From contig LBRL01000001.1 of the NCBI GenBank assembly GCA_000991405.1, forward strand, positions 527,989 through 591,988: a stretch of 64,000 bases of DNA, in the 5' to 3' direction. Source of the stretch: Candidatus Nomurabacteria bacterium GW2011_GWD2_36_14 (GTDB lineage: Bacteria; Patescibacteriota; Minisyncoccia; Phycocordibacterales; UBA9973). Positions 34,728 through 53,309 of this stretch are shown here, piece after piece (positions within the stretch are counted from its first letter, which is position 1; every line of letters begins with the position of its first letter). Made by a program: the position numbers and the translations under genes. Below the pieces are notes generated by a model, which ran no database searches, was not told where the DNA came from, and was given only the letters and a program-made list of their open reading frames with translations.

Positions 34728-37553
34728 ATGAAAAAACAAGTAGTACAAAAAATAATACTATCGCTAATAATTTTCACACTAGTTACTCCGTACATATATC
34801 AGTCTTCTAAAGCAGAAGCTGCTAAAATAGAGTGGGATAATCCAAGTAAAAATGGTAATCCTTATAAAATACAATTGACTGATACTTTAAATGGTAAATT
34901 ACTTACCGACGTTGTTTCTTGTACAGGGTTGGTGGATTCAGGTGTAAAGGCTGTAACAACTTTTTCTTCTGATTTATTAAAAAAAGCCGTTATAAATAAA
35001 TTAAAAAAACAAAAAACAAAAACTTGTGAGCTTGCTAAAAAGGGAGCAATTTCTGCAGTGGCTGGTGCTGTAAACCTAAGTTTAACCGATATAATAAAAC
35101 AGGTTAAATGTGAGGTTGATCCTACAACGGGGATTACAAATGTAAGTGACACTGCTTCTCAAGCAAAACAGCAAGAAATATTAAACCAATCATTAAAAGA
35201 ACAAAAGAGAAAAGAATGTTTAAATGGTATTGCCATAACACTTGCTAAAAACCAACTAGCTGCTATGACTAAGTATACAATGAACTGGGTAAACTCTGGA
35301 TTTGAAGGAGACCCTATGTATGTCCGTAATATTGATACATTCATGGGAAGAATGACAGACGACATTCTTATGAAAGAACTTAATATGTTCAAGGGTCAGC
35401 CACAATACTACCCATATGGTAACAGCTTCTACCGTAGTACAATCCTTGGTAATATTGCTAGAGGTAATTTTAAAGAATCAATGAAGCAAAACTTGTCCAA
35501 TTATTTGGGATCAGGTGGACTTGGTAATGATGCGGCAAACGTAGTTGATAGATATACAAATAATTTCGGGGAAGGTGGGTGGAATGCATGGCTTGCCTTT
35601 ACTCAATACCCTCAGAATAATTATTTAGGATATACACTAAAGACAACAGAGTATATAGCTGACAAACAAAATACCCAAGTTCAAAATACCAAAGAAGAAT
35701 TGCAACAGAACAACGGTTTCCTGTCACAGAAAAAATGTGTTGTTTATGGAACTACAGAAAAAGCTGCTCAGAGAAATTCGGAAAAGGAACAAGCCCAAGC
35801 ATCACTAGCGAGAAAATTGGAGGTTAGAAATAGTCTACAGAGTGCTATGTATACAGCATGCAAAATTGTGACGAATCCTGAGTGTAAAGGAGCAAATACC
35901 AACTTTCAGATAGCAGACAATGATTATGGTGAGGAGTTCGCTCTATATGCTAAAAAGTATAGCGAGACAGATGGAGCCACACAAGGGCAAGATAGTAAGA
36001 ATTGTACTAAATGGGAAACAGTTACTCCGGGAAGTGTCATAGCAGGGAAAATAAACACATACTTGAACTCAGAAGTAACACAACTAGAACTCGTAAATGG
36101 AGTAAATGATTTCTTGTCAGGAATATTTGACTCGTTGATATCAACACTCCGAAACGAAGGTCTTTCAAGTATATCTTCTATCAATAATTCTAAGGGGGGT
36201 ACTGGTTATAATAGTCCTATATATACCGATCCTAAAACAGGAGAAACATTGACTTCAAGTAATTATACAAATGAGTCTGTGGATTTAACAAAGGATCTAG
36301 GAAATACTTACATACATGATAAGTTGGCTTATAAAGGACTTTGGAATGCTAAAACAAATACACCAAAACTATTCATGGATACGGGTATTACAAACTCATA
36401 TTATACTGTGTCTGTTGCTGGAAATACAGAAATAATTAAAAATGGATACAATGGCTGGGAAGAAGGAGACAGAGCCTTCTTTGATGGAACAAATTGGCAA
36501 AATTGGAAAAAGGGAGAATTAAACCCTATAAAGACTCGTGGGACTGTTCAAACTCAACAAGACTATTTGATTGCAGCTAGAGAAGTATTAACCATATTAC
36601 CAGGAATTATGCCGAAGCTAGGGGAGCTTGACTATTGTATTCCTGGACCAAACCCTGGCTGGCAATTGAACACAAGCGAGACATCTGACGCATTTATGGC
36701 TTATGTGGACGGGCTTGATACTGACTATACTCCTTCAGGAGGATTCCTTGGTGCCAGAGATTATACAGAAATAAAATCTCCAGACCAAAACTCAGAAATA
36801 GTTAAAACATATCAAAAAATGTTTGAAAGCCCAATAGATAAAACATTTAGTATTGCAAACATCTGGAGTAAGGTATTAAATACTTACCCTTATTCTTCAA
36901 TCATGTATACAGATACACTAAGAGAGACAGGTCTGGGATGGAAGGGGACATATCGTGAGGGAGGAGCTAAATACTCAAGATCAGAAGAAGCTATAGGGGT
37001 GGTAACAGACTTAAAAGATAAAATCTTAAACGATTTAAATTTATTCCAGACAAAATACAATACTGAAATAAACAAAATATATGGACCAAATAGTTTAATG
37101 CAAAAAGAATTTTTAGAAAATGAAAGTACCAATGAATTAACCCTAAATCCTGCCTTTTTAGAAGTGTCTAAACCGGGGTTAAACATAACAAAAGATATAA
37201 CTTCTTATAATGATACAATTAAAGAAGCAACCGATACATACACAGAAGACATAGTTACCGCAAATATAAATATCAAAAAGTTGAACCTAATAAAGGATCG
37301 TGTAAGTCAGATAATTGTAGATGCTCAGAAAAGACGAGACGTAAATCGCGAAAGAATAATTAAAGAATACAACGAAACAAATAACACAAATATTACCCGT
37401 GCAGAATATGATAAATGTGCAAAAGAAGAAAATGTTTCATTCTATGAAGACACAGAGGTCCTAAAAAGCGGCACGACTGGAACAGAAAGATGTAGTGATG
37501 GAATAGACAATGATTTGGATGGATTAGTAGATGCACAAGATCCAGATTGTTGA
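34728..37553 (+). CDS. Large secreted or surface protein with a C-terminal Cys-flanked Asp-rich (TSP3/Excalibur-like) loop
   Basis: 941 aa; signal peptide; ends in CSDGIDNDLDGLVDAQDPDC. Confidence 0.6.
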   Translation: MKKQVVQKIILSLIIFTLVTPYIYQSSKAEAAKIEWDNPSKNGNPYKIQLTDTLNGKLLTDVVSCTGLVDSGVKAVTTFSSDLLKKAVINKLKKQKTKTCELAKKGAISAVAGAVNLSLTDIIKQVKCEVDPTTGITNVSDTASQAKQQEILNQSLKEQKRKECLNGIAITLAKNQLAAMTKYTMNWVNSGFEGDPMYVRNIDTFMGRMTDDILMKELNMFKGQPQYYPYGNSFYRSTILGNIARGNFKESMKQNLSNYLGSGGLGNDAANVVDRYTNNFGEGGWNAWLAFTQYPQNNYLGYTLKTTEYIADKQNTQVQNTKEELQQNNGFLSQKKCVVYGTTEKAAQRNSEKEQAQASLARKLEVRNSLQSAMYTACKIVTNPECKGANTNFQIADNDYGEEFALYAKKYSETDGATQGQDSKNCTKWETVTPGSVIAGKINTYLNSEVTQLELVNGVNDFLSGIFDSLISTLRNEGLSSISSINNSKGGTGYNSPIYTDPKTGETLTSSNYTNESVDLTKDLGNTYIHDKLAYKGLWNAKTNTPKLFMDTGITNSYYTVSVAGNTEIIKNGYNGWEEGDRAFFDGTNWQNWKKGELNPIKTRGTVQTQQDYLIAAREVLTILPGIMPKLGELDYCIPGPNPGWQLNTSETSDAFMAYVDGLDTDYTPSGGFLGARDYTEIKSPDQNSEIVKTYQKMFESPIDKTFSIANIWSKVLNTYPYSSIMYTDTLRETGLGWKGTYREGGAKYSRSEEAIGVVTDLKDKILNDLNLFQTKYNTEINKIYGPNSLMQKEFLENESTNELTLNPAFLEVSKPGLNITKDITSYNDTIKEATDTYTEDIVTANINIKKLNLIKDRVSQIIVDAQKRRDVNRERIIKEYNETNNTNITRAEYDKCAKEENVSFYEDTEVLKSGTTGTERCSDGIDNDLDGLVDAQDPDC

Positions 37554-37624: not shown

Positions 37625-39223
37625 TTGTATTTTATGGAAAATAACCCTAAAAAAAGTAAAGCATTCATAATAACATTCATACTGATATTGATACTTTTGA
37701 TAGCAGGTTATTATATATACAAGAATAGAACTCAAATGTTTGATGCGAAGGGGTCTACTTCTATGAGCAAAATATTCTCGCCACTTCTAGGCACTTCTAA
37801 GACTAAAGAAGTAAAGGTTATAGAAGATCCAAATACAAAAATAACTACAACTCCAATAGTTCCTAAGAAGACTGGAGTAGTGATCACAGATGTAAACGGC
37901 AATAAGATGGTCCTATCCGAAGCAGGTGAAATACTCAAGAAAGGCGACGTACTATATATAGCAGGCTTCAACAAGAACGACCAACCAATAGTCATGAAGG
38001 CCATAGCCAATGACAAGAACAAGTCTCTGGTCTTCGGAGTGGCAGGCGAAGACATGAATAAAGGAGCCCTAGGCAACGTAATTATAGAAGGAATACTTAC
38101 TGGAGTCCCTACCAATAGGAAGGAGGGTACCCTCTGGGTAGCCAAGAATACTCTCTTCCTAAGTGACAAGGTATATGGAGGGATGACGAAGAACTCGCCA
38201 AAGGCTCCTTCGTATATAGTACCTGTCGGAAGTGTTATAAAGGTAGATCCAAAGAATGGGTCTATAAGAATAGGAGGCTTGAATGATACTCTAACTGCCA
38301 ACCTAGAGAAATTAAATCTACTACTTTTAAGTAATTCAAACATGCAACTTATAAATGCTGTTATTAGTGATCTTCGTGACTACTGGAGTTCTATATTTGG
38401 TAACGGACTCTTTGGAAATATTGACTATACAAGTGGTGGAAACATAACCCCCGGTACACCCCCTATAAATCCTATCAATATTCCAGCTGGTAATAATATA
38501 GGCGGTACTAATGTAGGTGGTGCTAACTATACTACAACTGGTAGTAATACAGAATGTTCAGATAAGATTGATAATGATGGGGATGGTCTGATAGATGAGG
38601 CTGATTCAAATTGTCATATCAGTGGAGACCTCGCTAAGGCTTATGTACCACTTCATAATTCGGAGTCAACTTCACCTGTAGACCCAAATGCTGATAAAAT
38701 AACTGATGACAATTCTTGTAAAATAATAGAACAGAATCCTTTAACCTTCACCTCTGCAGAAAAAAAAGAGCTCGATGATCTATTGCGTAAATATTATTTA
38801 ATTGCTTCTACTCTAAAAACAAAAAATGATATAAATCTTGTGTATGCTGAGATAGCACAATATAGAGCATTTATTGAACAAATAACTGATCTTACAAATC
38901 AATGTTATACTGAATTAAAATCCCCAAATTATACTGGACCAAAGACACAGTACGGAAATCCTTGGTATAAATATGATAGCAGAGGGTCTTATCTTGCAAA
39001 TAGTTTGAATTCAACTTGTAAGTACGAGAGCTCAACTACGAGTGGAAGTGGGTCCAGAAGAGGTGGAACTACCACTTCCGGATCAGCAAATGATCCTTAT
39101 TGTGAGCCAACAGTTGGAGCCAATGGTGATACCCGCCCAGAAAGATATAATTTCTGGAATATTCCAGCATTTAATTCACCAGTTGACTTGAGAGATTTCG
39201 AAATACTTTTGAATGTGTGGTAA
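37625..39223 (+). CDS. Membrane-anchored surface protein with the same Cys/Asp loop
   Basis: 532 aa; N-terminal TM; a Gly/Asn/Thr-rich linker then CSDKIDNDGDGLIDEADSNC. Confidence 0.55.
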   Translation: MYFMENNPKKSKAFIITFILILILLIAGYYIYKNRTQMFDAKGSTSMSKIFSPLLGTSKTKEVKVIEDPNTKITTTPIVPKKTGVVITDVNGNKMVLSEAGEILKKGDVLYIAGFNKNDQPIVMKAIANDKNKSLVFGVAGEDMNKGALGNVIIEGILTGVPTNRKEGTLWVAKNTLFLSDKVYGGMTKNSPKAPSYIVPVGSVIKVDPKNGSIRIGGLNDTLTANLEKLNLLLLSNSNMQLINAVISDLRDYWSSIFGNGLFGNIDYTSGGNITPGTPPINPINIPAGNNIGGTNVGGANYTTTGSNTECSDKIDNDGDGLIDEADSNCHISGDLAKAYVPLHNSESTSPVDPNADKITDDNSCKIIEQNPLTFTSAEKKELDDLLRKYYLIASTLKTKNDINLVYAEIAQYRAFIEQITDLTNQCYTELKSPNYTGPKTQYGNPWYKYDSRGSYLANSLNSTCKYESSTTSGSGSRRGGTTTSGSANDPYCEPTVGANGDTRPERYNFWNIPAFNSPVDLRDFEILLNVW

Positions 39224-39253: not shown

Positions 39254-41785
39254 GTGGTATGTAAAATAATAATGAAAAGAATTTTATCTTCTATTTTAAT
39301 ATCGTTCGTTATCCTCGCAAACTTCCTTGCGCCTTTTAGTGTAGGATGGAGTGACAAAAATAAACTCCCAAACATAGAAATAAAACAACAAAAGGCTGAG
39401 GCTGAATATAATTATGGATTAAAAGTAACTCCAACATTAGGAAACACATATATTAATCTTGGAATAGAATTAATTGAGGGAACAGCAACTGGTGATTATG
39501 CTACTATTGTTACAACATCTAGTACTGCCAAACTTGAGCTTAGAGCAACAGTATTACTAAATGATGAAAAGATAACTGATGATACTGCTAGTAATTTGGG
39601 TTCAGATAACAAAAAAACAGCCCTTAATTTAGATGGGCTAGAATCTGGAAAACCATATAAAACAAAAATTGAATTAGTAGAAGTTTTGAATAGTTTTTCT
39701 GCAAGTGGAATGCCGGGTTATGCTGGTAAAACTTCTAAAACATTATATGAAAAAATAATTGACACCCCCACAATAGAAGAAGGGGAACAAGCTGTAGTAA
39801 AAGAAGGAATAGACATAAGTGGAAAGAGTGATACACTAAAAACTCCTGTAGATAATCCCGACAACATGCCAGATTGTTCAATAGTACCAGCAAAAATAAT
39901 GGGGTGTATTGCACAAGGTTTCTATTATGTACTTTTCATGCCAACTTCATATCTTTTTGCATTGGCTGGAACCTTCTTTGATAGTACTTTTGCATATTCA
40001 GTCCAAGATACTTCCTATAGATCTGCTTTCGTAGTGCAAGGATGGGGACTTGTAAGAGACTTTTGTAATCTATTCTTCATATTTATACTTTTATATGTTG
40101 CATTTTCTACAATATTAAATGTTCACAATTTTAATACAAAACAAATAATAATAAATGTAGTAGTTATAGGATTATTCATAAACTTCAGTCTCTTTGCTAC
40201 TCAACTTATAATAGACGCATCAAATATAACTGCGAGGGTATTCTACAATTCAGATGCAATAAAAATTACAGAAAATGGGGCAAACGGAGTTACAGAAGCT
40301 ACCCCCGGCTTGGTGGTAGGTGAAGGTGGAGTTATACCTCTTTCTGCTGCCTTAGTAAACAAAGTTAATCCACAAAATTTAATTCTTCACTCTAAAGAAG
40401 TAAATAATATTCCAGACAAAGAAGGAAGAGCTAAATCCAATGCAGATGCAGCTGAAAATCTAGGGGCTGGATCATTTATACTAATAGTAATAATAGCTTC
40501 AGCTGTAAATATAGTAGGAATCATTGTTTTCCTGTCTGTAGGGCTTATGTTCATAGCTCGAGTCATAGGACTCTGGCTAGCTATGATAATGGCCCCACTG
40601 GCATTCTTCACTTATATACTTCCTGAACAAATGGCAGGAATCAAAATGATTGGATGGAAGAACTGGTGGCCAGAAACTTTCAAGCTGGCATTCCTAGCTC
40701 CAGTCTTCATGTTCTTCATGTATATAATACTCAAATTCTTGAGCTTGGACTTGATAGCAGATGTATCAAATAAAACTATTTCAAAAGACGGATTAGGATT
40801 CTTTGTGGCCACTCTTATTCCTTTCGCATTCATAATGATACTCATGTTAAAAGCAAAAGGAATTGCAAAAGATATGTCTGGAGAACTCGGACAGCAAATT
40901 ACCGGAGGTGTAGCAGCCGCAGGCGGAATGCTTCTAGGTGGCGCAGCTTTGAGTACTGCTTTCTTAGGAAGAAAGATAGTTGGTCAAGGTTTAGCTAAGG
41001 CCTCAAAAGGAGATACTGCTTCTCAACAATATATGGATCCAGCCAAAAGAGCCAATATGAATATACTTAGAAAAAGTCTTGGTTTTGTTGGTTCTGGTTT
41101 TGGTACTGGATATGGAATAAATAAGGTTCATGATTATACTGGTGGACAATTAAACAAAAAACAAAAAACAATCGAAGAAATTGACCATGCAAGACATACT
41201 GTTGATTCTGTTAAAGACAAAAGGTATAAAGATATTGAGTGGTCAAGACTTTCTAATACACAGCAACAAAATGTAAGGGGTGATTTCGTGAAAGAAAATA
41301 AGAGTAAGTGGGCACAAGATGAAGAAGACGCATATCGAAAATCAAAGAAATATAATGATAAAAAGGCACTAACGCCTACTGAGATAGCAGAACTAAGAGA
41401 TCGTGTAACAGCTAGAGCAAATAAAGAATTTGATCATGAAATAAAACTGTCTACAACAAAAGTTAAGGGGCTTAACAGGGCAATTTCACAAATTAATACA
41501 GGAAGTATGGATATAAGAAAGCTATCTGAAATAAAATCTGATAAAAGGGAAGGATTCTTTACTAAAATGCCAGTTGCTCTTACTGCCGCTATTGCTATGG
41601 GGATGCGAACAGGAATAAAAAGTAGTGGTTTAAGTGGGGGATCAATAAAGGTGGAGGGAAATTTTATGAAAGATTTAACAAACACAATCAGCGATTCATT
41701 AAAGCAAGCAAAAGTTAATGTTGATATTAGCCATGTTGGAGAAACAAAAAGTAGTGCAGACCCACACGCAGGAGGACATCATTAG
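39254..41785 (+). CDS. VirB6/TrbL-like polytopic membrane protein with a large periplasmic N-domain and a coiled-coil C-tail
   Basis: 843 aa; signal peptide, an extracytoplasmic domain of about 200 aa, then 6-7 TM helices (for example FIFILLYVAFSTI, VVVIGLFINFSLFATQLII, FILIVIIASAVNIVGIIVFLSVGLMFIARVIGLWLAMIMAPLAFF, LAFLAPVFMFFMYIIL, FFVATLIPFAFIMILML), then a charged C-terminus. Confidence 0.5.
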   Translation: MVCKIIMKRILSSILISFVILANFLAPFSVGWSDKNKLPNIEIKQQKAEAEYNYGLKVTPTLGNTYINLGIELIEGTATGDYATIVTTSSTAKLELRATVLLNDEKITDDTASNLGSDNKKTALNLDGLESGKPYKTKIELVEVLNSFSASGMPGYAGKTSKTLYEKIIDTPTIEEGEQAVVKEGIDISGKSDTLKTPVDNPDNMPDCSIVPAKIMGCIAQGFYYVLFMPTSYLFALAGTFFDSTFAYSVQDTSYRSAFVVQGWGLVRDFCNLFFIFILLYVAFSTILNVHNFNTKQIIINVVVIGLFINFSLFATQLIIDASNITARVFYNSDAIKITENGANGVTEATPGLVVGEGGVIPLSAALVNKVNPQNLILHSKEVNNIPDKEGRAKSNADAAENLGAGSFILIVIIASAVNIVGIIVFLSVGLMFIARVIGLWLAMIMAPLAFFTYILPEQMAGIKMIGWKNWWPETFKLAFLAPVFMFFMYIILKFLSLDLIADVSNKTISKDGLGFFVATLIPFAFIMILMLKAKGIAKDMSGELGQQITGGVAAAGGMLLGGAALSTAFLGRKIVGQGLAKASKGDTASQQYMDPAKRANMNILRKSLGFVGSGFGTGYGINKVHDYTGGQLNKKQKTIEEIDHARHTVDSVKDKRYKDIEWSRLSNTQQQNVRGDFVKENKSKWAQDEEDAYRKSKKYNDKKALTPTEIAELRDRVTARANKEFDHEIKLSTTKVKGLNRAISQINTGSMDIRKLSEIKSDKREGFFTKMPVALTAAIAMGMRTGIKSSGLSGGSIKVEGNFMKDLTNTISDSLKQAKVNVDISHVGETKSSADPHAGGHH

Positions 41786-41833: not shown

Positions 41834-42565
41834 ATGGACCAAACAGAATTACAAGAAAAAATAGTGTTATACTACCAAAAGCTTCCAGAGGAAACTAAGG
41901 TACTTTTTGCTGGAATGTCTTGGCTTGAAACTCTTAAGGAAATAGATACAAAGTACTCTCTAAACGATGCTCAAATAGAAACCCTAGGGACAGAGACAAC
42001 AATACTCCTCCTTGGAATAATAAGTCTAGAAGATTACGTGCAAACTATAAAGGATGAAATAAAACTTGAAGGCACAGGAACAGATAATATGCTAGATGAA
42101 ATAGGAGATAAAATATTGAAAGACATAGCGCCTCTTCTGTATGAATCTTATGAAAAGAATGTGATGGAACTAGAAAAAGAGAATGTAAGTACTGATACTG
42201 TTCCTCTTCCACCTTATGCAGAAAAGAAACAAGCAGTAGAACCAAAAGTAAATCCTATCATTAATTCTGCATATTCTCACAATAATGAGACAGATATGTA
42301 CAGGGAGCATGGAATAGATGTGATATCCAACGACTATCCACAGACTACAAAAATGGACATACTTAAAAAGCAGGAAGAATTACAAGAAGAAAAGCATAAT
42401 GATAATTCAAACATAATAGCCAATAAGCTTTTCAATAATACTGCGAGTCAAAAGGTTGTGACAGATTATTCTATTCCAAAGGTTAATCCTCTTCTCAACA
42501 ACAATTCCTTGCCACAAGGTGGAATATCTACAAAGCCTCATGATCCATATCATGAGGAAATATAA
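41834..42565 (+). CDS. Acidic hypothetical protein (T4SS-locus component)
   Basis: 243 aa, Glu/Asp-rich, no TM. Confidence 0.4.
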   Translation: MDQTELQEKIVLYYQKLPEETKVLFAGMSWLETLKEIDTKYSLNDAQIETLGTETTILLLGIISLEDYVQTIKDEIKLEGTGTDNMLDEIGDKILKDIAPLLYESYEKNVMELEKENVSTDTVPLPPYAEKKQAVEPKVNPIINSAYSHNNETDMYREHGIDVISNDYPQTTKMDILKKQEELQEEKHNDNSNIIANKLFNNTASQKVVTDYSIPKVNPLLNNNSLPQGGISTKPHDPYHEEI

Positions 42566-42567
42566 AA

Positions 42568-42990
42568 ATGCAATTTAAAGTACCACAATTTATAGATATA
42601 GAAGATAAGATATTTGGTCCTTTCACCTTTCGCCAATTCGCGTACCTTATAGGTGGAGGGGGGATAGTATACGTCTTGTACAGACTACTGCCATTCTGGA
42701 TCAGTATCTTCCTCATACTTCCCATCATAGGCCTGACTATATGCCTAGTCTTTGTAAAGATAAATACTAAACCTTTCGAATACTACCTAGAAGCGGCATT
42801 TACTTACTTCATATCTAGTAAGCTTTATATCTGGAAGCAAAGATTGGTCAAAAAGAGTGACAAGCTAGAAGAGGTAAGTGCCCTTACAACAATGTCCAAC
42901 GTACCCATGCTGACAGAGAATAAACTCAAGGATTTATCGTGGAGCTTAGATATTCAAGACAAGAAAGATAATAAAATAATTAATAGTTAA
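42568..42990 (+). CDS. Small two-TM protein, VirB3-like (ConD/TcpE/PrgI-type) by position and topology
   Basis: 140 aa; two hydrophobic helices (FAYLIGGGGIVYVLYRLL; ISIFLILPIIGLTICLVFV). Its start overlaps the stop of the preceding gene. This is the typical position upstream of VirB4 in Gram-positive T4SS operons. Confidence 0.4.
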   Translation: MQFKVPQFIDIEDKIFGPFTFRQFAYLIGGGGIVYVLYRLLPFWISIFLILPIIGLTICLVFVKINTKPFEYYLEAAFTYFISSKLYIWKQRLVKKSDKLEEVSALTTMSNVPMLTENKLKDLSWSLDIQDKKDNKIINS

Positions 42991-43006
42991 GAATTAATAA
43001 TTAATA

Positions 43007-43357
43007 ATGAAGGGGAATAATATTATAAGGGAAAAAAGTTATAGTTTTAGTCTTAAAATTATTAAGATATATCAAGAATTAACTCAAGAAAAGAAGGAAT
43101 TCATACTATCAAAACAATTAATTCGTTCTGGTACATCTATAGGTGCAAATATCGAAGAATCAACAGGTGCCCAGTCTAAAAATGACTTCATCGCTAAATT
43201 GAGTATCTCGTACAAAGAAACATGGGAAACTCTTTATTGGTTAAGACTTTTGACCGATAGTGGTTTCCTTAATAAGAAACAGTCTGATATTCTTATTTTT
43301 GACTGCGAAGAGTTACTTAAAATACTAGGAGCCATACTAAAAACCTCCAAATCCTAG
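43007..43357 (+). CDS. Four-helix-bundle protein (23S rRNA intervening-sequence protein / Avd-like family)
   Basis: 116 aa; SYSFSLKIIKIY...LIRSGTSIGANIEES...FIAKLSISYKETWETLYWLRL matches the TIGR02436/PF05635-type family. It is flanked by (TTAATAA)n arrays at 42970-43009 and 43364-43464. Confidence 0.7.
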   Translation: MKGNNIIREKSYSFSLKIIKIYQELTQEKKEFILSKQLIRSGTSIGANIEESTGAQSKNDFIAKLSISYKETWETLYWLRLLTDSGFLNKKQSDILIFDCEELLKILGAILKTSKS

Positions 43358-43468
43358 GGTTTCATTATTAATTATTCAATGTGTGATATAATAAAAAGGT
43401 AATTAAAGTGTTTTGATTTATGTTTCTAAATTATTAATTATTAATTCTTAATTATTAATTACTTACCT

Positions 43469-44122
43469 ATGGCAATAGACGCAAAAGCGGCACAAAGTTT
43501 CGTACCAATAAAAGAAGTTCGCAATGGAGTCATCGTACTGAAGGATGGGGGGCTTCGAGCCGTCCTTATCGCTTCATCTATCAACCTTTCACTTAAGGCC
43601 TCCGATGAGCAAGTCGCTATTATCAACCAATTCCAAAACTTCCTAAACGGGCTAGATTTCCCCACACAGATAGTCATACAATCTAGACGTCTCGATATAC
43701 GACCATACCTACTCATGCTTGATGGTCGCCTCAAAGAACAAACAGAACCACTTCTAAAAATTCAAACCAAGGAGTACATAGACTTCATTAAATCTTTCAC
43801 CGATGAAGTAAATATTATGACCAAGACCTTCTTTGTTGTCGTACCTTATAGTTCAAGTGTCATTAATGCTAAGAGTGGATTAATGGATAGTATTCTAAGT
43901 GGTGGCACTCAAAAGAAGCCAGTGGACGACAGCAAGAAGGCTGTGGACTTGGCAACCTTTGAAGAGAAGCGTAGCCAGCTCGAACAGAGAACCAACGTCA
44001 TTATAAGTGGACTAAGTGGCATAGGAATACGAAGTAGTGTACTGAAGACAGACGAAGTTGTAGAACTTTTCTATAAAACATTCAACCCAGGAGATATTAG
44101 TCAGGGAATAAAATTACAATAA
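43469..44122 (+). pseudogene. virB4: VirB4-family ATPase, N-terminal 217-aa fragment (separated from the rest by one in-frame TAA)
   Basis: VPIKEVRNGVIVLKDGGLRAVLIASSINLSLKASDEQVAIINQFQNFLNGLDFPTQIV matches the N-terminus of Gram-positive VirB4 homologues (TcpF/TraE/PrgJ type). The stop at 44120-44122 is followed 6 nt later, in the same frame, by the ATG of the next ORF. Confidence 0.55.
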
Positions 44123-44128
44123 AACAAA

Positions 44129-45958
44129 ATGTCATTATTTTCATCAATATTTAAAAAAGGGGATGATAAAAAGCCACAGGGTCAAGTGATGCCTGTCTTG
44201 CCTACGGAAATATACAAGGCGGCAAATCTGGAACTCCAAGACGTCATTGCTCCTTCGGCTCTACAAATAACTCCAAAAGGTATTAACCTTGGGGACAAGA
44301 TAGCACGAACCTTCTTCGTTATTTCCTATCCTCGATACTTAACCGACAACTGGTTCTCACCGATTGTGAACCTCGACAAAGTCTTCGATGTATCTATATT
44401 CATCCACCCTATTGAAACTGCAGATATATTGAGATCATTCCAAAAGAAGGTAGCTGAGGTTCAAAGTCAGATATCTGTACGAGAGGCGAAGGGTCTAGTA
44501 CGTGACCCAATGCTCGATACTGCCTATCAAGACTTAGAAGGACTTCGCGATAACTTGATGCAGGCTCAGGAGAAAATGTTTGACGTAGGACTATATATTA
44601 CAGTCTATGCCGACAACGAGAACGACATGTTCAAAATAGAAAGTGAGATCAAGTCCCTTCTTGACTCCAAGCTTGTATATATAAAGCCCGCTCTCTTCCA
44701 GCAAGACGAAGGGTTCAAGAGCGTCATACCACTTGGTATGGACGTGCTGGGTATACACCAGAAGCTCAACACTGAGCCACTTTCTAGTCTCTTCCCATTT
44801 GTGTCTTTCGACCTTACTTCTGATAAGGGAATTCTATATGGGGTAAACAGACACAATAGTAGTCTTATCATCTTTGATAGATTCTCTCTACCAAACTACA
44901 ACTCCATTACTTTCGCAACAGCTGGAGCTGGTAAGTCGTATGCAACCAAGCTTGAGATTATTCGTACACTCATGTTCGATGCAGAAGTCATAGTCATAGA
45001 CCCCGAAAGAGAGTATGAATACCTAGCAGAAGCAATAGGGGGTAGATACTTCAATATTTCACTTTCTTCCGATCACCACATCAACCCTTTCGACCTTCCT
45101 ATCCCTAGACCAGATGAAACTGCGGCTGATGTACTTCGTGCCAATACTATTAATCTTGTAGGACTCTTCCGCATAATGCTAGGAGGACTGACTCCTGAAG
45201 AAGATTCTATAATCGACAGAGCTATTACCGAGACTTATGCCTTGAAAGATATAACAGCCGAATCCAACTTTGCCAACATTGAGCCACCACTACTTTCAGA
45301 CTTTGAAGTCGTACTGGCAGGAATGGATGGAAGTAACTCCCTTATACAACGTCTTACCAAGTATACTCACGGTTCTTGGGCTTCGTTTATAAACAAACCT
45401 TCCAATGTAGATATCAATCGCAAATTCGTCGTCTTCTCTGTTCGAGATATGGAGGACGAGCTTAAACCTGTGGCTATGTATATAGTTACTCACTTCATAT
45501 GGAATGCTGTCCGCAAGACTCTTAAGAAGAGACTCTTAGTCGTTGACGAGGCTTGGTGGATGATGAAGTCAGAAGACACAGCTTCGTTCCTATACTCTAT
45601 TGCCAAGAGAGGGCGTAAATACTATCTAGGACTTGCCACTATTACTCAGGACGTAGGAGACTTCATGAAGAGTCCTTATGGAGTGCCTATTGTGACCAAC
45701 TCTTCTATTCAACTTCTACTTAAACAGTCGCCGGCCACTATCGACGTCCTTCAGAAGACTTTCAACCTGACAGATGAGGAGAAGTACTTGCTTCTGGAAG
45801 CCAATGTGGGAGAGGGTATCTTCTTCGCAGGACTAAAGCACGTCGCAGTGAAGACTATTGCCTCGTATACAGAAGACCAGATCATTACCTCTGATCCTTC
45901 GCAAATCTTGGCCATTAGAAAAGCCAAGGATGATCTTGAAATGGCGGGAGGAAAGTAA
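44129..45958 (+). CDS. virB4: VirB4/TrbE/ConE-like T4SS ATPase (C-terminal 609 aa)
   Basis: The VirB4 mid-domain pattern (VIAPSALQITPKGINLGDKIARTFFVISYPRYLTDNWF) fits the IAP...G...R-hh-V-x-YPR...W pattern. Walker A is FATAGAGKS. Walker B is LLVVDEAWWMM, and the DEAW motif is typical of VirB4/TraC. Confidence 0.7.
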   Translation: MSLFSSIFKKGDDKKPQGQVMPVLPTEIYKAANLELQDVIAPSALQITPKGINLGDKIARTFFVISYPRYLTDNWFSPIVNLDKVFDVSIFIHPIETADILRSFQKKVAEVQSQISVREAKGLVRDPMLDTAYQDLEGLRDNLMQAQEKMFDVGLYITVYADNENDMFKIESEIKSLLDSKLVYIKPALFQQDEGFKSVIPLGMDVLGIHQKLNTEPLSSLFPFVSFDLTSDKGILYGVNRHNSSLIIFDRFSLPNYNSITFATAGAGKSYATKLEIIRTLMFDAEVIVIDPEREYEYLAEAIGGRYFNISLSSDHHINPFDLPIPRPDETAADVLRANTINLVGLFRIMLGGLTPEEDSIIDRAITETYALKDITAESNFANIEPPLLSDFEVVLAGMDGSNSLIQRLTKYTHGSWASFINKPSNVDINRKFVVFSVRDMEDELKPVAMYIVTHFIWNAVRKTLKKRLLVVDEAWWMMKSEDTASFLYSIAKRGRKYYLGLATITQDVGDFMKSPYGVPIVTNSSIQLLLKQSPATIDVLQKTFNLTDEEKYLLLEANVGEGIFFAGLKHVAVKTIASYTEDQIITSDPSQILAIRKAKDDLEMAGGK

Positions 45959-45999
45959 GTTGTGGATATAGTATCTCTATCGTATAATATAAAGAGATA

Positions 46000-46995
46000 A
46001 TGATGAATAATAAATTCATAAAAATTTTAGGAATAATTATGGTAATAAGCATACTTTCTATGCCATCTTTTTCTTTGGCTGAATCTGAAATATCTATACG
46101 TGAAAGTGACATAGATGTACAAATGTGGCCAGAAATTCCAGAGCCTTATCAAGATGTAAACATAAAGCTAGTAAGTTATGCTACAGACTTAAACAAGGCA
46201 ATCATTGAATGGAGAGTGGGCTCAAATATAGTACTTTCTGGATATGGAAAAATAAACTATTCAATGAAAGCTCCGGGCCCAAATATAACTACAAATATTA
46301 TATTATCTATAACTCCAGTAAATTCTATTAGTAAAATAATAAAACAAATTGTAGTACAACCCTCAGATATAGAGGTACTATGGGAAGCAGTTGATGGGTA
46401 TACGCCACCTTTCTATAAGGGTAAGTCTTTAATATCAAAGGAGGGAACTATAAAATTGGTAGCAATACCAAACTCTTCAACTATTAAAAGCGGTAGGGGA
46501 AATATTTCATACAAATGGATGAGGGACGACGCAACAGTAGAAGAGGTATCGGGATATAACAAAGATTCATATATATTTGAAAATAATGTCCTCAAATCAA
46601 ATGAGACTATAAACTTAACTGCTTCTTCTGTAGACGGATCATATAATGCAAATAAAAATTTAGATATACCTATATACTCTCCTAAGGTATTATTCTACAA
46701 AAAGTCTCCTACAGAGGGAGTGCAGTATAATAAAGTACTAGATAGTAATACAATCTTTACAGGAGACGAAATGACTATAGTGGCAGAGCCCTACTTCTTG
46801 GCAATAAAAGGGAATGAAAATTTGTTTAATTATACTTGGAATATAAATGGCGATCCTATAAAAACTCCCTCAAAGAAAACAGAGCTTACTATTCGCCCAA
46901 CAGCAAGAGGAGGGTATGCCAATATTGACGTGACTTTGGAAAATGTTAACAAGATTTTCCAAAAAGTTTCTGGGGCATTAAAATTAACACTATAA
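46000..46995 (+). CDS. Secreted beta-rich hypothetical protein
   Basis: 331 aa; signal peptide (ILGIIMVISILSMPSFSLA). Confidence 0.45.
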   Translation: MMNNKFIKILGIIMVISILSMPSFSLAESEISIRESDIDVQMWPEIPEPYQDVNIKLVSYATDLNKAIIEWRVGSNIVLSGYGKINYSMKAPGPNITTNIILSITPVNSISKIIKQIVVQPSDIEVLWEAVDGYTPPFYKGKSLISKEGTIKLVAIPNSSTIKSGRGNISYKWMRDDATVEEVSGYNKDSYIFENNVLKSNETINLTASSVDGSYNANKNLDIPIYSPKVLFYKKSPTEGVQYNKVLDSNTIFTGDEMTIVAEPYFLAIKGNENLFNYTWNINGDPIKTPSKKTELTIRPTARGGYANIDVTLENVNKIFQKVSGALKLTL

Positions 46996-47015: not shown

Positions 47016-48617
47016 TTGATTATTATGAGAACAAACATAAACATGAAAGAATACAAAAAAACAACAAAAAAATTATTAAATACCTCTTCTAATGGGATGA
47101 AAAAAATCTTTTCTAAAATAATAATATCCTTTGTTTTGTTTAGTTTTATTATTCCTTTGTCAATAAATTTAAATAGGAGTGAAGTTTTGGCGGCTGAAAC
47201 TTGGTATTATACAAGGTTAGGTGATATAGGATACACTGAAAGGGTAAATTCCATAGATTATGCAATGGAATCTGATTGTCTAAAAGATCTTAAAAGCGTT
47301 CATTCAAGTCGAGAACCTAGTACTGTTTGTTATAAAAAAAATGTCGTTGTTCAAACAGAGAATAATACAGAAGGAACATATTGGTTTAGGGACATGGATA
47401 ATGCCTTCAGGGGAACATTAGGCCCGCTTAAACTTCCCGGTTTTACAACATCACAAGAATGTGAGAATGCAAAAAATACATATTGGGGTCCAAATTCTAA
47501 TAATGCCGCCAGTAAATTACCTTGTTATTTAATATCTAGTGAACAGGTACTTTTAAATTTTGAGCTCGAAAAACAAAAAAACGCAAAAATGCCAGGTGAT
47601 GATTCTGTGCCAATCACTCCCAAAATCGGAGCAACGGAAAATAATAATATTTACAAAATGCTAGTACCTCTGCCGGGGATTACTTGTATGGATAATACGG
47701 GTAAAGATCCAAGCTGTATCGGAAACAATGTAGGGACGTATTTAAATTTTATCTTCAAATTTGGTATTGGACTATGTGCAGCGCTTGCAGTAGTCATGCT
47801 TATAATCTACGGTATTACATATATGGGGGATGAATCAATCTTTGGTAAGACTGAGGCAAAGAAGAAAATGTTTGGAGCTATCATAGGGCTTATAATTGCA
47901 ATAGGTGGCTGGGCACTTCTAAACACAATCAACCCAGACCTGACGGGGAAGAATGGATTGGTAATCGATTCGGTAGAGGTTAAAGCTCGTACAGATGATC
48001 CTGATTTTATTCAAAACATTTCTTCTCTTGATACAAAAAATGTAACTGCATTAAGTTTTAGTGATCCATTATTTAAAGGATATTTAGCTCATCAACAAGG
48101 ACCTGCAGGTGCTGCTGCTATTATTTGGGCTACAAGCAAGGGATTGAATGAGGTTCCAAGTGATAATCCTTTCACAAACTCACCTGTAAATACAAATATG
48201 AAGAGTAATTTCCCTGCAACAGATGCAACTAAAGTAATAGGTACTTCTGTTTTAACCCCAGCAAACTTCTTAAGATACTGGTCGTTAAAAACAGCCGCAG
48301 CAAAAGCAAAAACTGGTCCAATTTTCCCCGCTATTGAGGCTGCATTAAAAAAAGTTTCTTCTGAGACAGGGGTACCTCTGGAGACTCTGGTGGCAATCTG
48401 TCGAATAGAATCTGCTGCTGGCTGTACAAACGAAAGCTCTATAACAAAATCAAATGGTAGCTTTCAGGGATTATTTCAAATAGGTAGTGCGGCGTGGAAT
48501 GATTATGGAAATAAAAATGGAAATATACTTGACCCATATGAAAACGCACTTGCCGCAGCTAAATACTACAAATCTAATCTTCAATCTATACAAAATTTAT
48601 TATCAAAAAATAGCTAA
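47016..48617 (+). CDS. VirB1-like lytic transglycosylase (SLT domain) fused to a pilin-like TM hairpin and a Cys-containing N-domain
   Basis: 533 aa; signal/TM; central two-helix hairpin FIFKFGIGLCAALAVVMLIIYGITYMGDESIFGKTEAKKKMFGAIIGLIIAIGGWALL; C-terminal SLT-like motifs (VAICRIESAAG, GLFQIGSAAW, AAAKYY). Confidence 0.55.
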   Translation: MIIMRTNINMKEYKKTTKKLLNTSSNGMKKIFSKIIISFVLFSFIIPLSINLNRSEVLAAETWYYTRLGDIGYTERVNSIDYAMESDCLKDLKSVHSSREPSTVCYKKNVVVQTENNTEGTYWFRDMDNAFRGTLGPLKLPGFTTSQECENAKNTYWGPNSNNAASKLPCYLISSEQVLLNFELEKQKNAKMPGDDSVPITPKIGATENNNIYKMLVPLPGITCMDNTGKDPSCIGNNVGTYLNFIFKFGIGLCAALAVVMLIIYGITYMGDESIFGKTEAKKKMFGAIIGLIIAIGGWALLNTINPDLTGKNGLVIDSVEVKARTDDPDFIQNISSLDTKNVTALSFSDPLFKGYLAHQQGPAGAAAIIWATSKGLNEVPSDNPFTNSPVNTNMKSNFPATDATKVIGTSVLTPANFLRYWSLKTAAAKAKTGPIFPAIEAALKKVSSETGVPLETLVAICRIESAAGCTNESSITKSNGSFQGLFQIGSAAWNDYGNKNGNILDPYENALAAAKYYKSNLQSIQNLLSKNS

Positions 48618-48624
48618 TTAATAA

Positions 48625-49824
48625 ATGCCCAGAAAAACAAAAATTATTTTAATATCAGTGTTCATATTTGTTATAGCAGTTTTGCTTGGTGTTTATTTCT
48701 ATAACAAAAGTAAAACTCCAAATACTGTGGATCCAAATGCAGGCTTCTACCAAAAGTTCAATCCATTTGGAACAAGCACCAAGGTAGATAATGGGGGAGA
48801 TACTACAAATACAACTACTGATAATGTAGACACAACCCTAAAAGTGAATTCAAGATTTCACAAACTCACAGACTTCGCAGTAGCTGGAGCAACATCATTC
48901 GAAGACACAAGGGATGAGGCTACAGTACCATCTCTACGCTACGTAGAGCGTGCTACAGGCCATGTATACCAAATGTACCTCGATACAAAAGTTACTGGCA
49001 AGATATCAAACTCTACAATCCCTGGAGTATATGAAACTATATTCGACGGTAAGGCCAACTCGGTCATCTATAGATATGCATCAGAAGACAACAAGTCTAT
49101 TACGAGCTTCCTTGCCACTCTCGGAGGGAAGAGTAGCTTCCTGAATTCAAACATACTAGAAGTTGCTTTGTCTCCTGACAAAAGTAAGTTCTTCTCTGTT
49201 ATAGAAACCACAAATGGAGTCATAGGGGTCACAAAGTCTTTCGAAGAGACTAAGACTAGCCAAGTCTTCACCTCAGCTTTCTCTGAGTGGCTACCACAGT
49301 GGGCGACAACTGGTAATATATATCTGACAACCAAACCTTCATACTTGGTAGAGGGAAGTGTGTTCAACTTAAATATTGCAAATGGAACACTTTCAAAGAT
49401 TCTAGGTAGAGTGCAAGGACTTACAACTCTAGCCAACAAAGATGGTACATCATTGCTTTATGGAGCATCGCTAGACAATGGCCCAAGGCTCAATATTTTC
49501 AATATTAAGAATCATACGTCAGAAGACCTAGGTAAATATGGGCTTCCTGAGAAGTGTGTCTGGAGTAGCGACAATATAAATGTCTACTGTGCTGTACCCA
49601 ATACAATAGTAGGGAACCAGTACCCCGACTCTTGGTACCAAGGAGTTATATCTTTCGATGACTTCTTCGTTAAAATAAATACAGTTACTAAAGAATCTGC
49701 AACTCTAGCTAATTCGAAGGATGAAGTACCTGTAGATGGTACAAATCTATTCTTGAACAAAGATGAGAGTAAATTATTCTTTATAAATAAGAAAGACTCC
49801 ACTTTATGGAGTCTTGACCTCTAA
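48625..49824 (+). CDS. Membrane-anchored beta-propeller-like (TolB-like) hypothetical protein
   Basis: 399 aa; N-terminal TM (IILISVFIFVIAVLLGVYF) then a repetitive beta-rich domain. Confidence 0.4.
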   Translation: MPRKTKIILISVFIFVIAVLLGVYFYNKSKTPNTVDPNAGFYQKFNPFGTSTKVDNGGDTTNTTTDNVDTTLKVNSRFHKLTDFAVAGATSFEDTRDEATVPSLRYVERATGHVYQMYLDTKVTGKISNSTIPGVYETIFDGKANSVIYRYASEDNKSITSFLATLGGKSSFLNSNILEVALSPDKSKFFSVIETTNGVIGVTKSFEETKTSQVFTSAFSEWLPQWATTGNIYLTTKPSYLVEGSVFNLNIANGTLSKILGRVQGLTTLANKDGTSLLYGASLDNGPRLNIFNIKNHTSEDLGKYGLPEKCVWSSDNINVYCAVPNTIVGNQYPDSWYQGVISFDDFFVKINTVTKESATLANSKDEVPVDGTNLFLNKDESKLFFINKKDSTLWSLDL

Positions 49825-50291
49825 TTGTTTATATCTCCTACATATTTTATTACTACTCTTCTGCTTGGGCCGTATCCTTCGGACTCAGTTTTAATATCGG
49901 GAATACCTTCTAAAAACATATGTATAATGCGACGTTCGTTGGCAGGCATGGGGTCTACTTCTATGTTACTCTTGAAATACTTGGCACGTTCAGCCATCAT
50001 GTGTGCAATATTCTTCAATCCATCAAATCTTTTCTTTTGATAACCATTCACGTCAACAAAAATATTGGATAGCTCGGTCTCTTGTCCTACCGCTTTCTCT
50101 ACAATTTTTCTAACAAGATGATTGAGGGATCTTAGTGTTTCTCCTTCGCGTCCAATCATGAATCTGGAGTCGGGGGTCTCTATCATACACCAGAGCATAT
50201 TACCCTCAAGAGCTATCTCAAGCTTGGAGATAGTACAAGCTGTGTGCTTGAAAATATCTTCTATTGTGGATTTAATTATTGCTTCATTCAT
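49821..50291 (-). CDS. jag: Jag/KhpB RNA-binding protein (KH + R3H)
   Basis: 156 aa; KH-like (FMIGREGETLRSLNHLV) and R3H (PMPANERRIIHMFLEG) motifs; immediately downstream of yidC. Confidence 0.85.
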   Translation of the reverse strand: MNEAIIKSTIEDIFKHTACTISKLEIALEGNMLWCMIETPDSRFMIGREGETLRSLNHLVRKIVEKAVGQETELSNIFVDVNGYQKKRFDGLKNIAHMMAERAKYFKSNIEVDPMPANERRIIHMFLEGIPDIKTESEGYGPSRRVVIKYVGDINN

Positions 50292-50299
50292 ATATTTAA

Positions 50300-51034
50300 T
50301 TAATTATTCTCTAATGATCTTCGAATGTACCATTCTTGAATTATAGTGAATATATTACTTATAACAAAATATAATGCAACTGCAGCAGAAATTTGCCATG
50401 AAATGAAAACAATAAATATAGGCAATATGTACTTGATGTTGGTCTGCATGCTTCCCGAAAGTTCATCTTGAAAGCTTTTGACTTCTGGTGTTGCCCCAGC
50501 AGGAATAACTTCAACCTTTGGTTGAACAGGGGAGGCAAGGTAGCCTTGGATAAATTGAGTAATACCGGCTAGAATGGCTAGCACAAGGCTCTTGCCACCA
50601 AGCTCAATAAGTCCCAAGAAGTTGGTATTCATAGCTGTAGGCTTGGCTATGAAGGTATATATGGCACCTGTATCAAGAGATAGCCCCTTAAGAAATACAT
50701 AATACAATGCAAAGATAACTGGAAGCTGTATAAGTACGACAATACATCCTGAAAAGGGATTGGTGCCGTATTTCTTGTATAATTCAAAGGTTTTCTTGGC
50801 TTGTTCCTCTTTGTTTGGGAAGTCTTTCTTTATCTGCTTGATCTCGGGTTCCATCTTCTTCATAAGTATCTGGCTCTTTATAGACTTCTTGGTCAAGGGA
50901 GCAAGGGCAAGCTTTATAAGGATAGTAACTAGTATAATAGCAAAACCAACATCACCAAAAGTGACATTGTTTATAATAAAAATAAGGATATTATAAATTG
51001 GCTGATAAAAAATAGAATTCCATATTGCTGACAT
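50300..51034 (-). CDS. yidC: Membrane protein insertase YidC (short form)
   Basis: 244 aa; conserved YidC/Oxa1 core with multiple TMs; gene order yidD-yidC-jag. Confidence 0.85.
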   Translation of the reverse strand: MSAIWNSIFYQPIYNILIFIINNVTFGDVGFAIILVTILIKLALAPLTKKSIKSQILMKKMEPEIKQIKKDFPNKEEQAKKTFELYKKYGTNPFSGCIVVLIQLPVIFALYYVFLKGLSLDTGAIYTFIAKPTAMNTNFLGLIELGGKSLVLAILAGITQFIQGYLASPVQPKVEVIPAGATPEVKSFQDELSGSMQTNIKYILPIFIVFISWQISAAVALYFVISNIFTIIQEWYIRRSLENN

Positions 51035-51950: not shown

Positions 51951-53309
51951 ATGGGAAACATGAACACAAAAGAACTCTGGGAAAAGTGCCTTTCTGAGGT
52001 AGAACTAAGCATATCAAAAGCCAACTTTACAACTTGGTTTAAAAATACATCTATCGTTAGAGAAGAGGCGGGAACACTTTATGTGGGAGTTCCAAACGAA
52101 TTTGTAAAAGACTGGCTATACAACAAGTTCCATAAGTTAATATTGAAAACAATAATAGGCCACGAAGAGGGAGTAAGAAGTATAGAATATATAATCCACA
52201 AGAATGATAGCTCTCCTAAAAATATTGAAAATACTATCCTAAAACAAGTTAATATTAATAAAGAACTTCCTTTAAGTGATCTATATTTAAACAAAGACGA
52301 TAACCTAAATCCAAAATACAACTTCAACTCATTTGTCGTTGGTCCTTTCAATGAACTTGCGTATGCTGTGGCCCAAGCGATCATAACAAACCCCGGACAG
52401 AATTACAATCCATTCTTCGTTTATGGTGGTACAGGACTCGGCAAGACACATATGATCCAAGCAATAGGTAATACTATTAAAATAAAACACCCACACAAGA
52501 AGATCTACTACGTCTCTCTAGAACGTTTTGCTATCGACTATATAAATTCAATTGCCAATAAAAACCCAAACTCTTTCAAAGAAAAGTATAGGAAGTATGA
52601 TGTCATCATTATGGACGATATACAATTTATATCTGGTAAAGACAAAACACAAGAAGAACTCTTCCATCTTTTCAATACCTTATACGAAAACAACAAGCAA
52701 ATAATCTTCTCCTCTGATAAACACCCTAACTTCATTCAGGGATTAGAAGATAGACTTCAATCTAGGTTCGCTTCTGGTATGACTGTCCAGATAGTAGAGC
52801 CAGACTATGAATCCAGAGTTGCAATTATAAAGGCCAAATTTGAATCTACTAATTGTATTATAGAAAACGACATAGTTTCCTATTTGGCAGAGATACTGGA
52901 AGGGAATATTCGTGAATTGGAAGGGAGTTTAAACACTATTATCTGCCAGTCTCAACTTAAAAATAAGTCTTTATCTTTAAGTGAAATAAAGCTTCTTATT
53001 AAGAACAATATCAAACCTAAAAAGACTGTAGCTATCAAGGATGTGGTGTCTGTAATAGCCAACCATTATGGAATATCTGACGAAATAATATATGAGAAGA
53101 CTCGCAGGAAAGAAATAGTGAAAGCAAGACAAGTAGCAATGTATATACTTCGTGAGGATTTCAACATCTCATATCCACTCATAGGTAGTAAACTGGGGGG
53201 AAGAGACCATACAACAGCCATACACTCGCACTTAAAAATTAAAGAAGAATTAAAAACAGACCCCGCCCTCTTACAAGAAATAGAAAAGATAAGAATAATG
53301 TTCAAGTAA
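51951..53309 (+). CDS. dnaA: Chromosomal replication initiator DnaA
   Basis: 452 aa; AAA+ Walker A GGTGLGKTHMIQAIGN, sensor motifs, and the C-terminal DnaA-box-binding HTH (RQVAMYILRE...GGRDHTTAIHS). Confidence 0.95.
   Translation: MGNMNTKELWEKCLSEVELSISKANFTTWFKNTSIVREEAGTLYVGVPNEFVKDWLYNKFHKLILKTIIGHEEGVRSIEYIIHKNDSSPKNIENTILKQVNINKELPLSDLYLNKDDNLNPKYNFNSFVVGPFNELAYAVAQAIITNPGQNYNPFFVYGGTGLGKTHMIQAIGNTIKIKHPHKKIYYVSLERFAIDYINSIANKNPNSFKEKYRKYDVIIMDDIQFISGKDKTQEELFHLFNTLYENNKQIIFSSDKHPNFIQGLEDRLQSRFASGMTVQIVEPDYESRVAIIKAKFESTNCIIENDIVSYLAEILEGNIRELEGSLNTIICQSQLKNKSLSLSEIKLLIKNNIKPKKTVAIKDVVSVIANHYGISDEIIYEKTRRKEIVKARQVAMYILREDFNISYPLIGSKLGGRDHTTAIHSHLKIKEELKTDPALLQEIEKIRIMFK

Follow-up and report, generated by a model that had tools for sequence, protein, structure and literature searches.

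Does the VirB4 locus of Candidatus Nomurabacteria bacterium GW2011_GWD2_36_14 hold one gene broken by a stop codon or two genes? In the 64,000-nt stretch of this genome considered here (the window, whose coordinates are used throughout), two adjacent open reading frames (ORFs) at 43469-44122 (ORF1) and 44129-45958 (ORF2) together resemble a single VirB4 of a type IV secretion system (T4SS). A first-pass annotation, made from the sequence alone, described them as a VirB4 homologue split by a single in-frame TAA and listed four possible causes: a recent nonsense mutation, a sequencing or assembly error, programmed readthrough and a genuine two-polypeptide VirB4. The TAA and the common frame are real, but the description as one broken gene does not hold, since the homologues are split in all 78 relatives that could be compared. 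It is the last of the four options that agrees with the data: homologues are split alike in these relatives, on Firmicutes plasmids and on the staphylococcal plasmid pSK41. ORF1 and ORF2 almost certainly belong to a chromosomal T4SS cluster of Patescibacteria as two intact genes, each translated on its own, one encoding a TrsD-like protein and the other the remainder of VirB4.

Two reading frames that together span VirB4

The coordinates were re-read in the sequence, which confirmed two ORFs in the same frame parted by a TAA and six nucleotides. The features of the gene pair are as follows.

43469..44122, + strand: TrsD-like protein of 217 aa, a free-standing homologue of the VirB4 N-terminal subdomain (remote NCBIfam matches, homologues)
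44120..44122, + strand: genuine TAA stop of the TrsD-like gene (translation; all 78 relatives have a stop at the corresponding point)
44123..44128, + strand: intergenic spacer of 6 nt, aacaaa (sequence)
44129..45958, + strand: VirB4-type ATPase of 609 aa without the TrsD-like N-terminal subdomain (NCBIfam, Pfam and PDB matches)
44915..44938, + strand: intact Walker A motif ATAGAGKS, ORF2 residues 263-270 (translation)
45533..45556, + strand: intact Walker B region LLVVDEAW, ORF2 residues 469-476 (translation)

The distance from the start of ORF1 to the start of ORF2 is 660 nt, or 220 codons, so that the two ORFs share a frame, and their summed length is 826 aa. The match of ORF2 to the NCBIfam model conju_CD1110 (NF045971) scores 364.9 bits (E 8.3e-109), above the cutoff of 325 bits, and covers ORF2 residues 31-572, which correspond to profile positions 182-732. 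Proteins of the CD1110 family carry the N-terminal subdomain (positions ~1-180) in the same chain; ORF2 does not, while the separate ORF1 matches positions 2-133 of the same model (E 2.7e-4). In other words, ORF2 is without exactly the segment that the upstream ORF1 supplies, and the two together span profile positions 2 to 732, which agrees with the earlier remark that about 826 aa is the length of a full VirB4.

The remaining matches of ORF2 are those of a VirB4-type ATPase. Pfam identified the domains P-loop_TraG, AAA_10 and DUF87, and in PDB the matches were 4AG5, which is the C-terminal domain of VirB4 (E 3.6e-37), and TrwK (E 3e-5). Residues G266, G268, K269 and S270 of the Walker A motif and D473, E474, A475 and W476 of the Walker B region are invariant in the alignment of ATPases from related genomes (A2). 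In length, the 120 closest homologues of ORF2 (87-100% identity) range from 589 to 627 aa, and none comes near 826 aa. The start at 44129, which gives 609 aa, is supported because it is the first ATG directly after the ORF1 stop and because the N-terminal peptide M-[GS]-[IL]-F-S-S-[IL]-F is kept across species. Some NCBI records (P0122, P0153) give the ATPase as 589 aa, starting from the internal Met21 (44189 instead of 44129).

A free-standing homologue of the VirB4 N-terminal subdomain

ORF1 matches the N-terminal region of the NCBIfam model VirB4_plasma (E 1e-9). The local Pfam scan found no family for ORF1; in the protein database all of its homologues carry the precomputed assignment PF26593. 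The search of PDB sequences yielded nothing for ORF1, either with the single sequence or with a 30-sequence profile (A1), even at E 10. A database search returned 7,890 homologues, and the best 120 of these 7,890 (75-100% identity) are 211-219 aa long, none being about 826 aa. Among cluster representatives at 50% identity, searched exhaustively, 2,204 matched ORF1; 148 of the best 150 have no ATPase part and two are fused to it.

Thirty seven of these 148 ATPase-less representatives are proteins of 261-450 aa, the extra length being mostly a low-complexity tail. Of the distant TrsD-like proteins that stand alone, about one in four has a C-terminal tail of 50-230 aa (P0259-P0389; for example, P0300, P0307 and P0345). 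Most of the tails are of low complexity, often with an abundance of P, A, Q and T; a similar stretch forms the linker of one of the two fused proteins (P0326).

We estimated the rates of non-synonymous (dN) and synonymous (dS) substitutions. Across the pairs compared, dN of ORF1 is 0.08-0.27 and dS is at least 2 or saturated. For the window and its closest relatives dN is 0.08-0.09 and dS exceeds 2, and the dN/dS ratio is about 0.03-0.06 where it can be computed; as dS is saturated for ORF2 and for most ORF1 pairs, the ratios are upper bounds only. Judged by these rates, ORF1 is under strong purifying selection.

The same junction in related genomes

The first-pass annotation had proposed looking for the same stop in related genomes. 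With the ATPase alignment as the query we gathered 80 species-representative loci from Paceibacteria and Nomurabacteria; both genes are intact in 78 of them, and the junction counts refer to these 78. The proteins are 51-87% (ORF1) and 77-93% (ORF2) identical to those of the window. In every one of the 78 loci the homologues are split at the equivalent point, ORF1 being closed by a stop codon: TAA in 64 loci, TAG in 11 and TGA in three.

The frame of the ATPase gene relative to ORF1 is random: 0 in 22 loci, +1 in 30 and +2 in 26. Because of this, the shared reading frame of the window is, on this comparison, a coincidence with a chance of one in three. Between the stop and the ATG lie from -4 nt (an ATGA overlap in a single locus) to 445 nt, the median being 13 nt; 38 loci have spacers of at most 10 nt, and 17 have long spacers or inserted genes between the two. 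Many of the loci in which the genes share a frame have from two to six stops between them. The junction sequences show no conservation among the relatives.

Taken together, these comparisons show both genes to be conserved, under purifying selection and adjacent, with no dependence of one on the reading frame of the other. The division of VirB4 is old and fixed.

In one relative (L065, approximately 2853-3500, from the Nomurabacteria metagenome-assembled genome (MAG) MFD05512.bin.2.35) the TrsD-like ORF seems to be broken at about residue 131, beyond which it runs on in a different frame; the cause could be a sequencing error in a homopolymer or a true disruption.

Where the division lies

The two fused proteins among the best 150 representatives are P0351 (797 aa) and P0326 (898 aa). 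The former comes from Candidatus Colwellbacteria, another lineage of Patescibacteria, where it was seen in three MAGs; it is 40% identical to the window proteins in its N-terminal part and 55% in its C-terminal part. Alignment to the fused proteins places the break between the conserved motifs ELFYxxFNP and DVIAPS, at a linker of variable length (about 30 aa in P0351 and about 130 aa in P0326) and poor conservation. In the low-confidence AlphaFold2 model of P0351 (predicted local distance difference test score, pLDDT, 54; predicted template modelling score 0.33) the pLDDT of the linker is about 24, and the linker is probably disordered. P0351, P0326 and the single-chain Gram-positive VirB4 of the CD1110 family (for example, that of CTn2 of Clostridioides difficile) are one polypeptide, whereas the window encodes two. 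The fused relatives and the NCBIfam matches bear out the earlier assignment of ORF1 to the N-terminal part of VirB4 and of ORF2 to the rest with the ATPase.

Precedents in Firmicutes plasmids and other systems

A TBLASTN search of plasmids with ORF1 found homologues in Firmicutes. On pJFP838A of Clostridium perfringens the genes follow one another as they do here: a gene of the PrgI family, a gene for a 312-aa hypothetical protein (the match of ORF1), a gap of 130 nt and a DUF87 ATPase. On a Pontibacillus plasmid with the same gene order, the gene for a 274-aa homologue of ORF1 overlaps a virB4 gene of the CD1110 family by 11 nt. In pSK41 of Staphylococcus aureus, a VirB3-like gene (135 aa) is followed by trsD (227 aa), a 14-nt gap and a 672-aa DUF87 ATPase, again an order like that of the window.

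ORF2 residue 14 aligns with residue 8 of pSK41 TrsE (E 6e-32), so that the two ATPases can be aligned from their N-termini, and the profile of the ORF1 family aligns with pSK41 TrsD from end to end (hhalign; 167 columns, E 2.3e-4, 17% identity). Because of these two alignments we place the split point at the TrsD/TrsE boundary of pSK41 and pGO1. Moreover, ORF1 has the size and the position of TrsD/TraD: it stands alone, measures about 200 aa and is homologous to the N-terminal portion of VirB4, and its gene lies downstream of a VirB3-like gene and directly upstream of a VirB4-type ATPase gene.

TrsD/TraD and TrsE/TraE of the staphylococcal plasmids pGO1 and pSK41 belong to the MPF_FATA class, and pSK41 is conjugative, with a relaxase and a coupling protein. 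Unlike that plasmid, the window locus is chromosomal, and a Pfam scan of 21 proteins of the window gave no family of relaxases or of VirD4-type coupling proteins. In the diderm system of R388, TrwK/VirB4 (PDB 7O41, 7O43 and 8RTB) is a single chain of 823 aa; the ATPase domain of ORF2 matches its residues 447-735, while the similarity of ORF1 to it is weak. TrwK chains nevertheless make up eight of the ten best PDB matches when the AlphaFold2 model of ORF1 is searched with Foldseek.

Weak TBLASTN matches of ORF1 were also seen on haloarchaeal plasmids (Halobellus, Halorientalis, Haloplanus and Haloglomus; H15-H17 and H20), with E 0.03-0.1 and about 23% identity across 66-72% of the query; they could be chance matches, or else archaeal conjugation systems could have TrsD-like proteins of their own.

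The arrangement has already been described for the phylum. Quinonero-Coronel et al. (2025, Microb Genom, PMC12102498) detected 2,272 TrsD homologues in Patescibacteria, which makes TrsD the most abundant T4SS component found there, and 1,664 of the 2,272 are encoded beside virB4. The same paper, citing Wang et al. (2023, Cell), gives the TrsD homologue of Candidatus Southlakia epibionticum as essential. It also reports dnaA, ksgA and related genes as frequent neighbours of the T4SS clusters of Patescibacteria. The window resembles these published pairs in all these respects: within the same phylum, a free-standing protein like the VirB4 N-terminus adjoins virB4, the companions are the same (PrgI/VirB3 and a VirB2-like pilin) and so is the place near dnaA and ksgA. 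It differs from them in nothing substantive, the 6-nt in-frame spacer being a peculiarity of this genome without functional meaning; the locus also has a cassette with a four-helix-bundle gene, inserted between prgI and the TrsD-like gene. The two-gene arrangement is therefore ordinary for the phylum and already known (PMC12102498).

Alternative explanations

The window taken by itself would fit a recent nonsense mutation that broke a continuous virB4 and left the apparatus decaying: the ORFs have the same frame, a single stop and 6 nt lie between them, and two relatives, of 797 and 898 aa, are fused. The comparative data nevertheless refute this, leaving it next to no probability. A stop is present in all 78 related species with variable frame and spacing, no close relative has a sense codon there, and there is no continuous ORF among the best 120 homologues of either part. 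The dN/dS ratio of ORF1 gives no sign of relaxed selection, ORF2 begins with an ATG and an N-terminal peptide that are conserved in their own right, and neither the Walker motifs nor the ORFs of the neighbouring T4SS genes are damaged. A false stop made by sequencing or assembly is less probable still, although the source is evidently a MAG, in which such errors occur. The identical 217-aa product has at least four NCBI accessions, several of them independent, and is found on 37 contigs (NCBI, JGI, ENA and Logan), which excludes an assembly artefact; the identical 609-aa product is found on 31 contigs, and every relative has two genes.

Matching frames with one intervening stop could also mean that programmed readthrough, or recoding of the TAA, gives an 828-aa VirB4 beside the short product. 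This requires a frame that the relatives do not keep: their frames are random, one has the ATGA overlap, and in many the spacer, of 50-445 nt, contains two to six in-frame stops or an entire inserted gene. Among the relatives, ORF1 is closed by any of the three stop codons. An Rfam scan of 42500-46100 gave only two sub-threshold chance matches and no RNA family at or near the junction (44120), where the sequences are not conserved either. Hence we regard readthrough as refuted and give it hardly any credence. Recoding of TAA is not known in bacteria. UGA is recoded in some Patescibacteria; an alternative genetic code was considered and rejected, as the window stop is TAA and the relatives use all three stops.

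A different question is whether ORF1 is a detached domain at all. It might share no more than ancestry with the VirB4 N-terminus and serve the T4SS as an independent accessory protein, not bound to the ATPase, and the long low-complexity tails of many homologues, rich in P, Q, A and T, are something that no VirB4 needs. Against this stand the tight and conserved adjacency to the ATPase gene, with half of the spacers at 10 nt or less, the natural fusions with the ATPase in Candidatus Colwellbacteria and the fact that the CD1110 segment missing from ORF2 is precisely the one that ORF1 supplies. We consider an independent accessory protein improbable.

Several observations weigh against our interpretation of ORF1 as the VirB4 N-terminal subdomain of the TrsD type. 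Its match to the TrsD/TraD model NF041427 (E 5.2e-6) has 26.4 bits and does not reach the curated cutoff of 200 bits, and the hhalign probability of the alignment with pSK41 TrsD is 44%. For these two reasons we call ORF1 only TrsD-like: as the profiles place it, it is a remote relative outside the NCBIfam subfamily NF041427. The AlphaFold2 model of ORF1 has a mean pLDDT of 63, and the structural link to the VirB4 N-domain is weak, the best Foldseek match to TrwK having E 0.045 and a template modelling score of 0.38. Finally, the TrsD homologues of Gracilibacteria are not linked to virB4 (PMC12102498), and given this TrsD may not always be a VirB4 subunit.

A proposed two-polypeptide motor

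Under the preferred interpretation of two genuine genes, ORF1 would provide the VirB4 N-terminal subdomain as a separate polypeptide of 217 aa, and ORF2 the rest of the VirB4 N-terminal domain with the RecA-like ATPase. Both products would come from one transcript. Translation of ORF2 may often be coupled to that of ORF1, as suggested by the spacers of 10 nt or less in half of the lineages, and the 6 nt of the window are short enough for it; such coupling would not be obligatory, because of the 17 loci with long spacers or inserted genes. By the Rosetta-stone argument from the rare fused relatives, the two products could reassemble non-covalently into a VirB4-like motor, which the PrgI/VirB3-like protein would anchor at the membrane.

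The boundary is structurally alike in Patescibacteria, in pSK41 and on Firmicutes megaplasmids. For that reason one might speculate, with little confidence, that in a large branch of monoderm T4SS the split state is the ancestral one, that fusions of the Colwellbacteria type are secondary, and that the detached N-domain, which often bears long disordered tails rich in P, Q, A and T, is an adaptor subunit dosed or regulated separately and not just a passive part of VirB4.

Neighbourhood of the gene pair and inserted cassettes

The other features around the gene pair are listed below.

32838-33776: KsgA/RsmA, upstream of the T4SS cluster
42568..42990, + strand: small membrane protein of the PrgI family, VirB3-like (Pfam PrgI, E 1.8e-10, 41.6 bits, cutoff 27)
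42974..43464, + strand: inserted cassette with a gene for a 23S rRNA intervening-sequence protein (Pfam match, inverted repeats)
47016..48617, + strand: T4SS pilin-like domain and SLT lytic transglycosylase domain in one protein of 533 aa (Pfam, NCBIfam)
49821-50291: R3H/Jag-like gene
50300-51034: YidC
51951..53309, + strand: dnaA (Pfam Bac_DnaA, E 1.1e-63)

The T4SS cluster is chromosomal and near the presumed replication origin, as the R3H/Jag-like gene, YidC and dnaA follow shortly downstream and the neighbourhood is that described in PMC12102498.

The PrgI gene is the first of the conserved trio VirB3-like / TrsD-like / VirB4. In the window the cassette parts it from ORF1; the cassette is not part of the T4SS proper. 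It contains a four-helix-bundle gene at 43007-43357 for the intervening-sequence protein (Pfam 23S_rRNA_IVP, PF05635, E 2e-27) and is bounded by 35-nt inverted repeats (42974-43008 and 43430-43464, 94% complementary). The predicted RNA fold of the cassette has a closing stem of about 32 bp and z = -4.3. The cassette resembles an rRNA intervening sequence but sits inside a protein-coding operon, and it could be mobile, a site of processing by RNase III, or both. TBLASTN found genes of this kind in five of the 80 related loci, four of them upstream of ORF1 and one (L046, 2972-3420) between the two genes; another such gene in the TrsD-VirB4 spacer (L070, 3064-3500) was recognised only by eye.

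In the relatives, this spacer is a landing site for small inserts with flanking inverted repeats. In L005 (3210-3500) a small ORF, GIY-YIG-like by eye only, lies between the arms tcccgttagag...ctctaacggga, and the same arms flank ORF-less elements of about 120 nt in L007 (3376-3500) and L021 (3377-3500), which have the look of miniature inverted-repeat transposable elements. Palindromic motifs, aagttataaagt/actttataactt or ggcaactaggc...gcctagagcc, are present in many of the longer spacers (L017, L020, L024, L026, L052, L054, L068 and L073). They could be hairpins left by or awaiting cassettes, or stems of the terminator or processing type.

The 533-aa protein encoded downstream of the ATPase in the same cluster combines pilin-like and VirB1-like modules in one chain: a hydrophobic segment resembling VirB2/Mbov_0395 (residues ~235-305; Pfam T4SS_pilin, E 0.007; NCBIfam Mbov_0395 pilin-like, E 8.8e-6) and a C-terminal SLT domain (residues 446-527; Pfam SLT, E 2.1e-5). 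Two large upstream proteins, at 34728-37553 (941 aa) and 37625-39223 (532 aa), have no Pfam match, each containing one acidic double-disulfide repeat (NF033662, under cutoff). No family in Pfam or NCBIfam was found for the 843-aa protein at 39254-41785.

Meaning of the two-gene arrangement

For annotation, the gene pair should not be called a pseudogene, merged into one coding sequence or cited as a candidate for recoding. The fitting name for ORF1 is TrsD-like T4SS protein and that for ORF2 VirB4-type ATPase, the start of the latter being at 44129 and not at the internal Met of some NCBI records. The locus adds one more case to the published pattern of a monoderm-type T4SS of Patescibacteria, near the replication origin, with a VirB4 motor of two polypeptides. 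According to the account cited above, the T4SS of Patescibacteria is essential in the one cultivated case tested.

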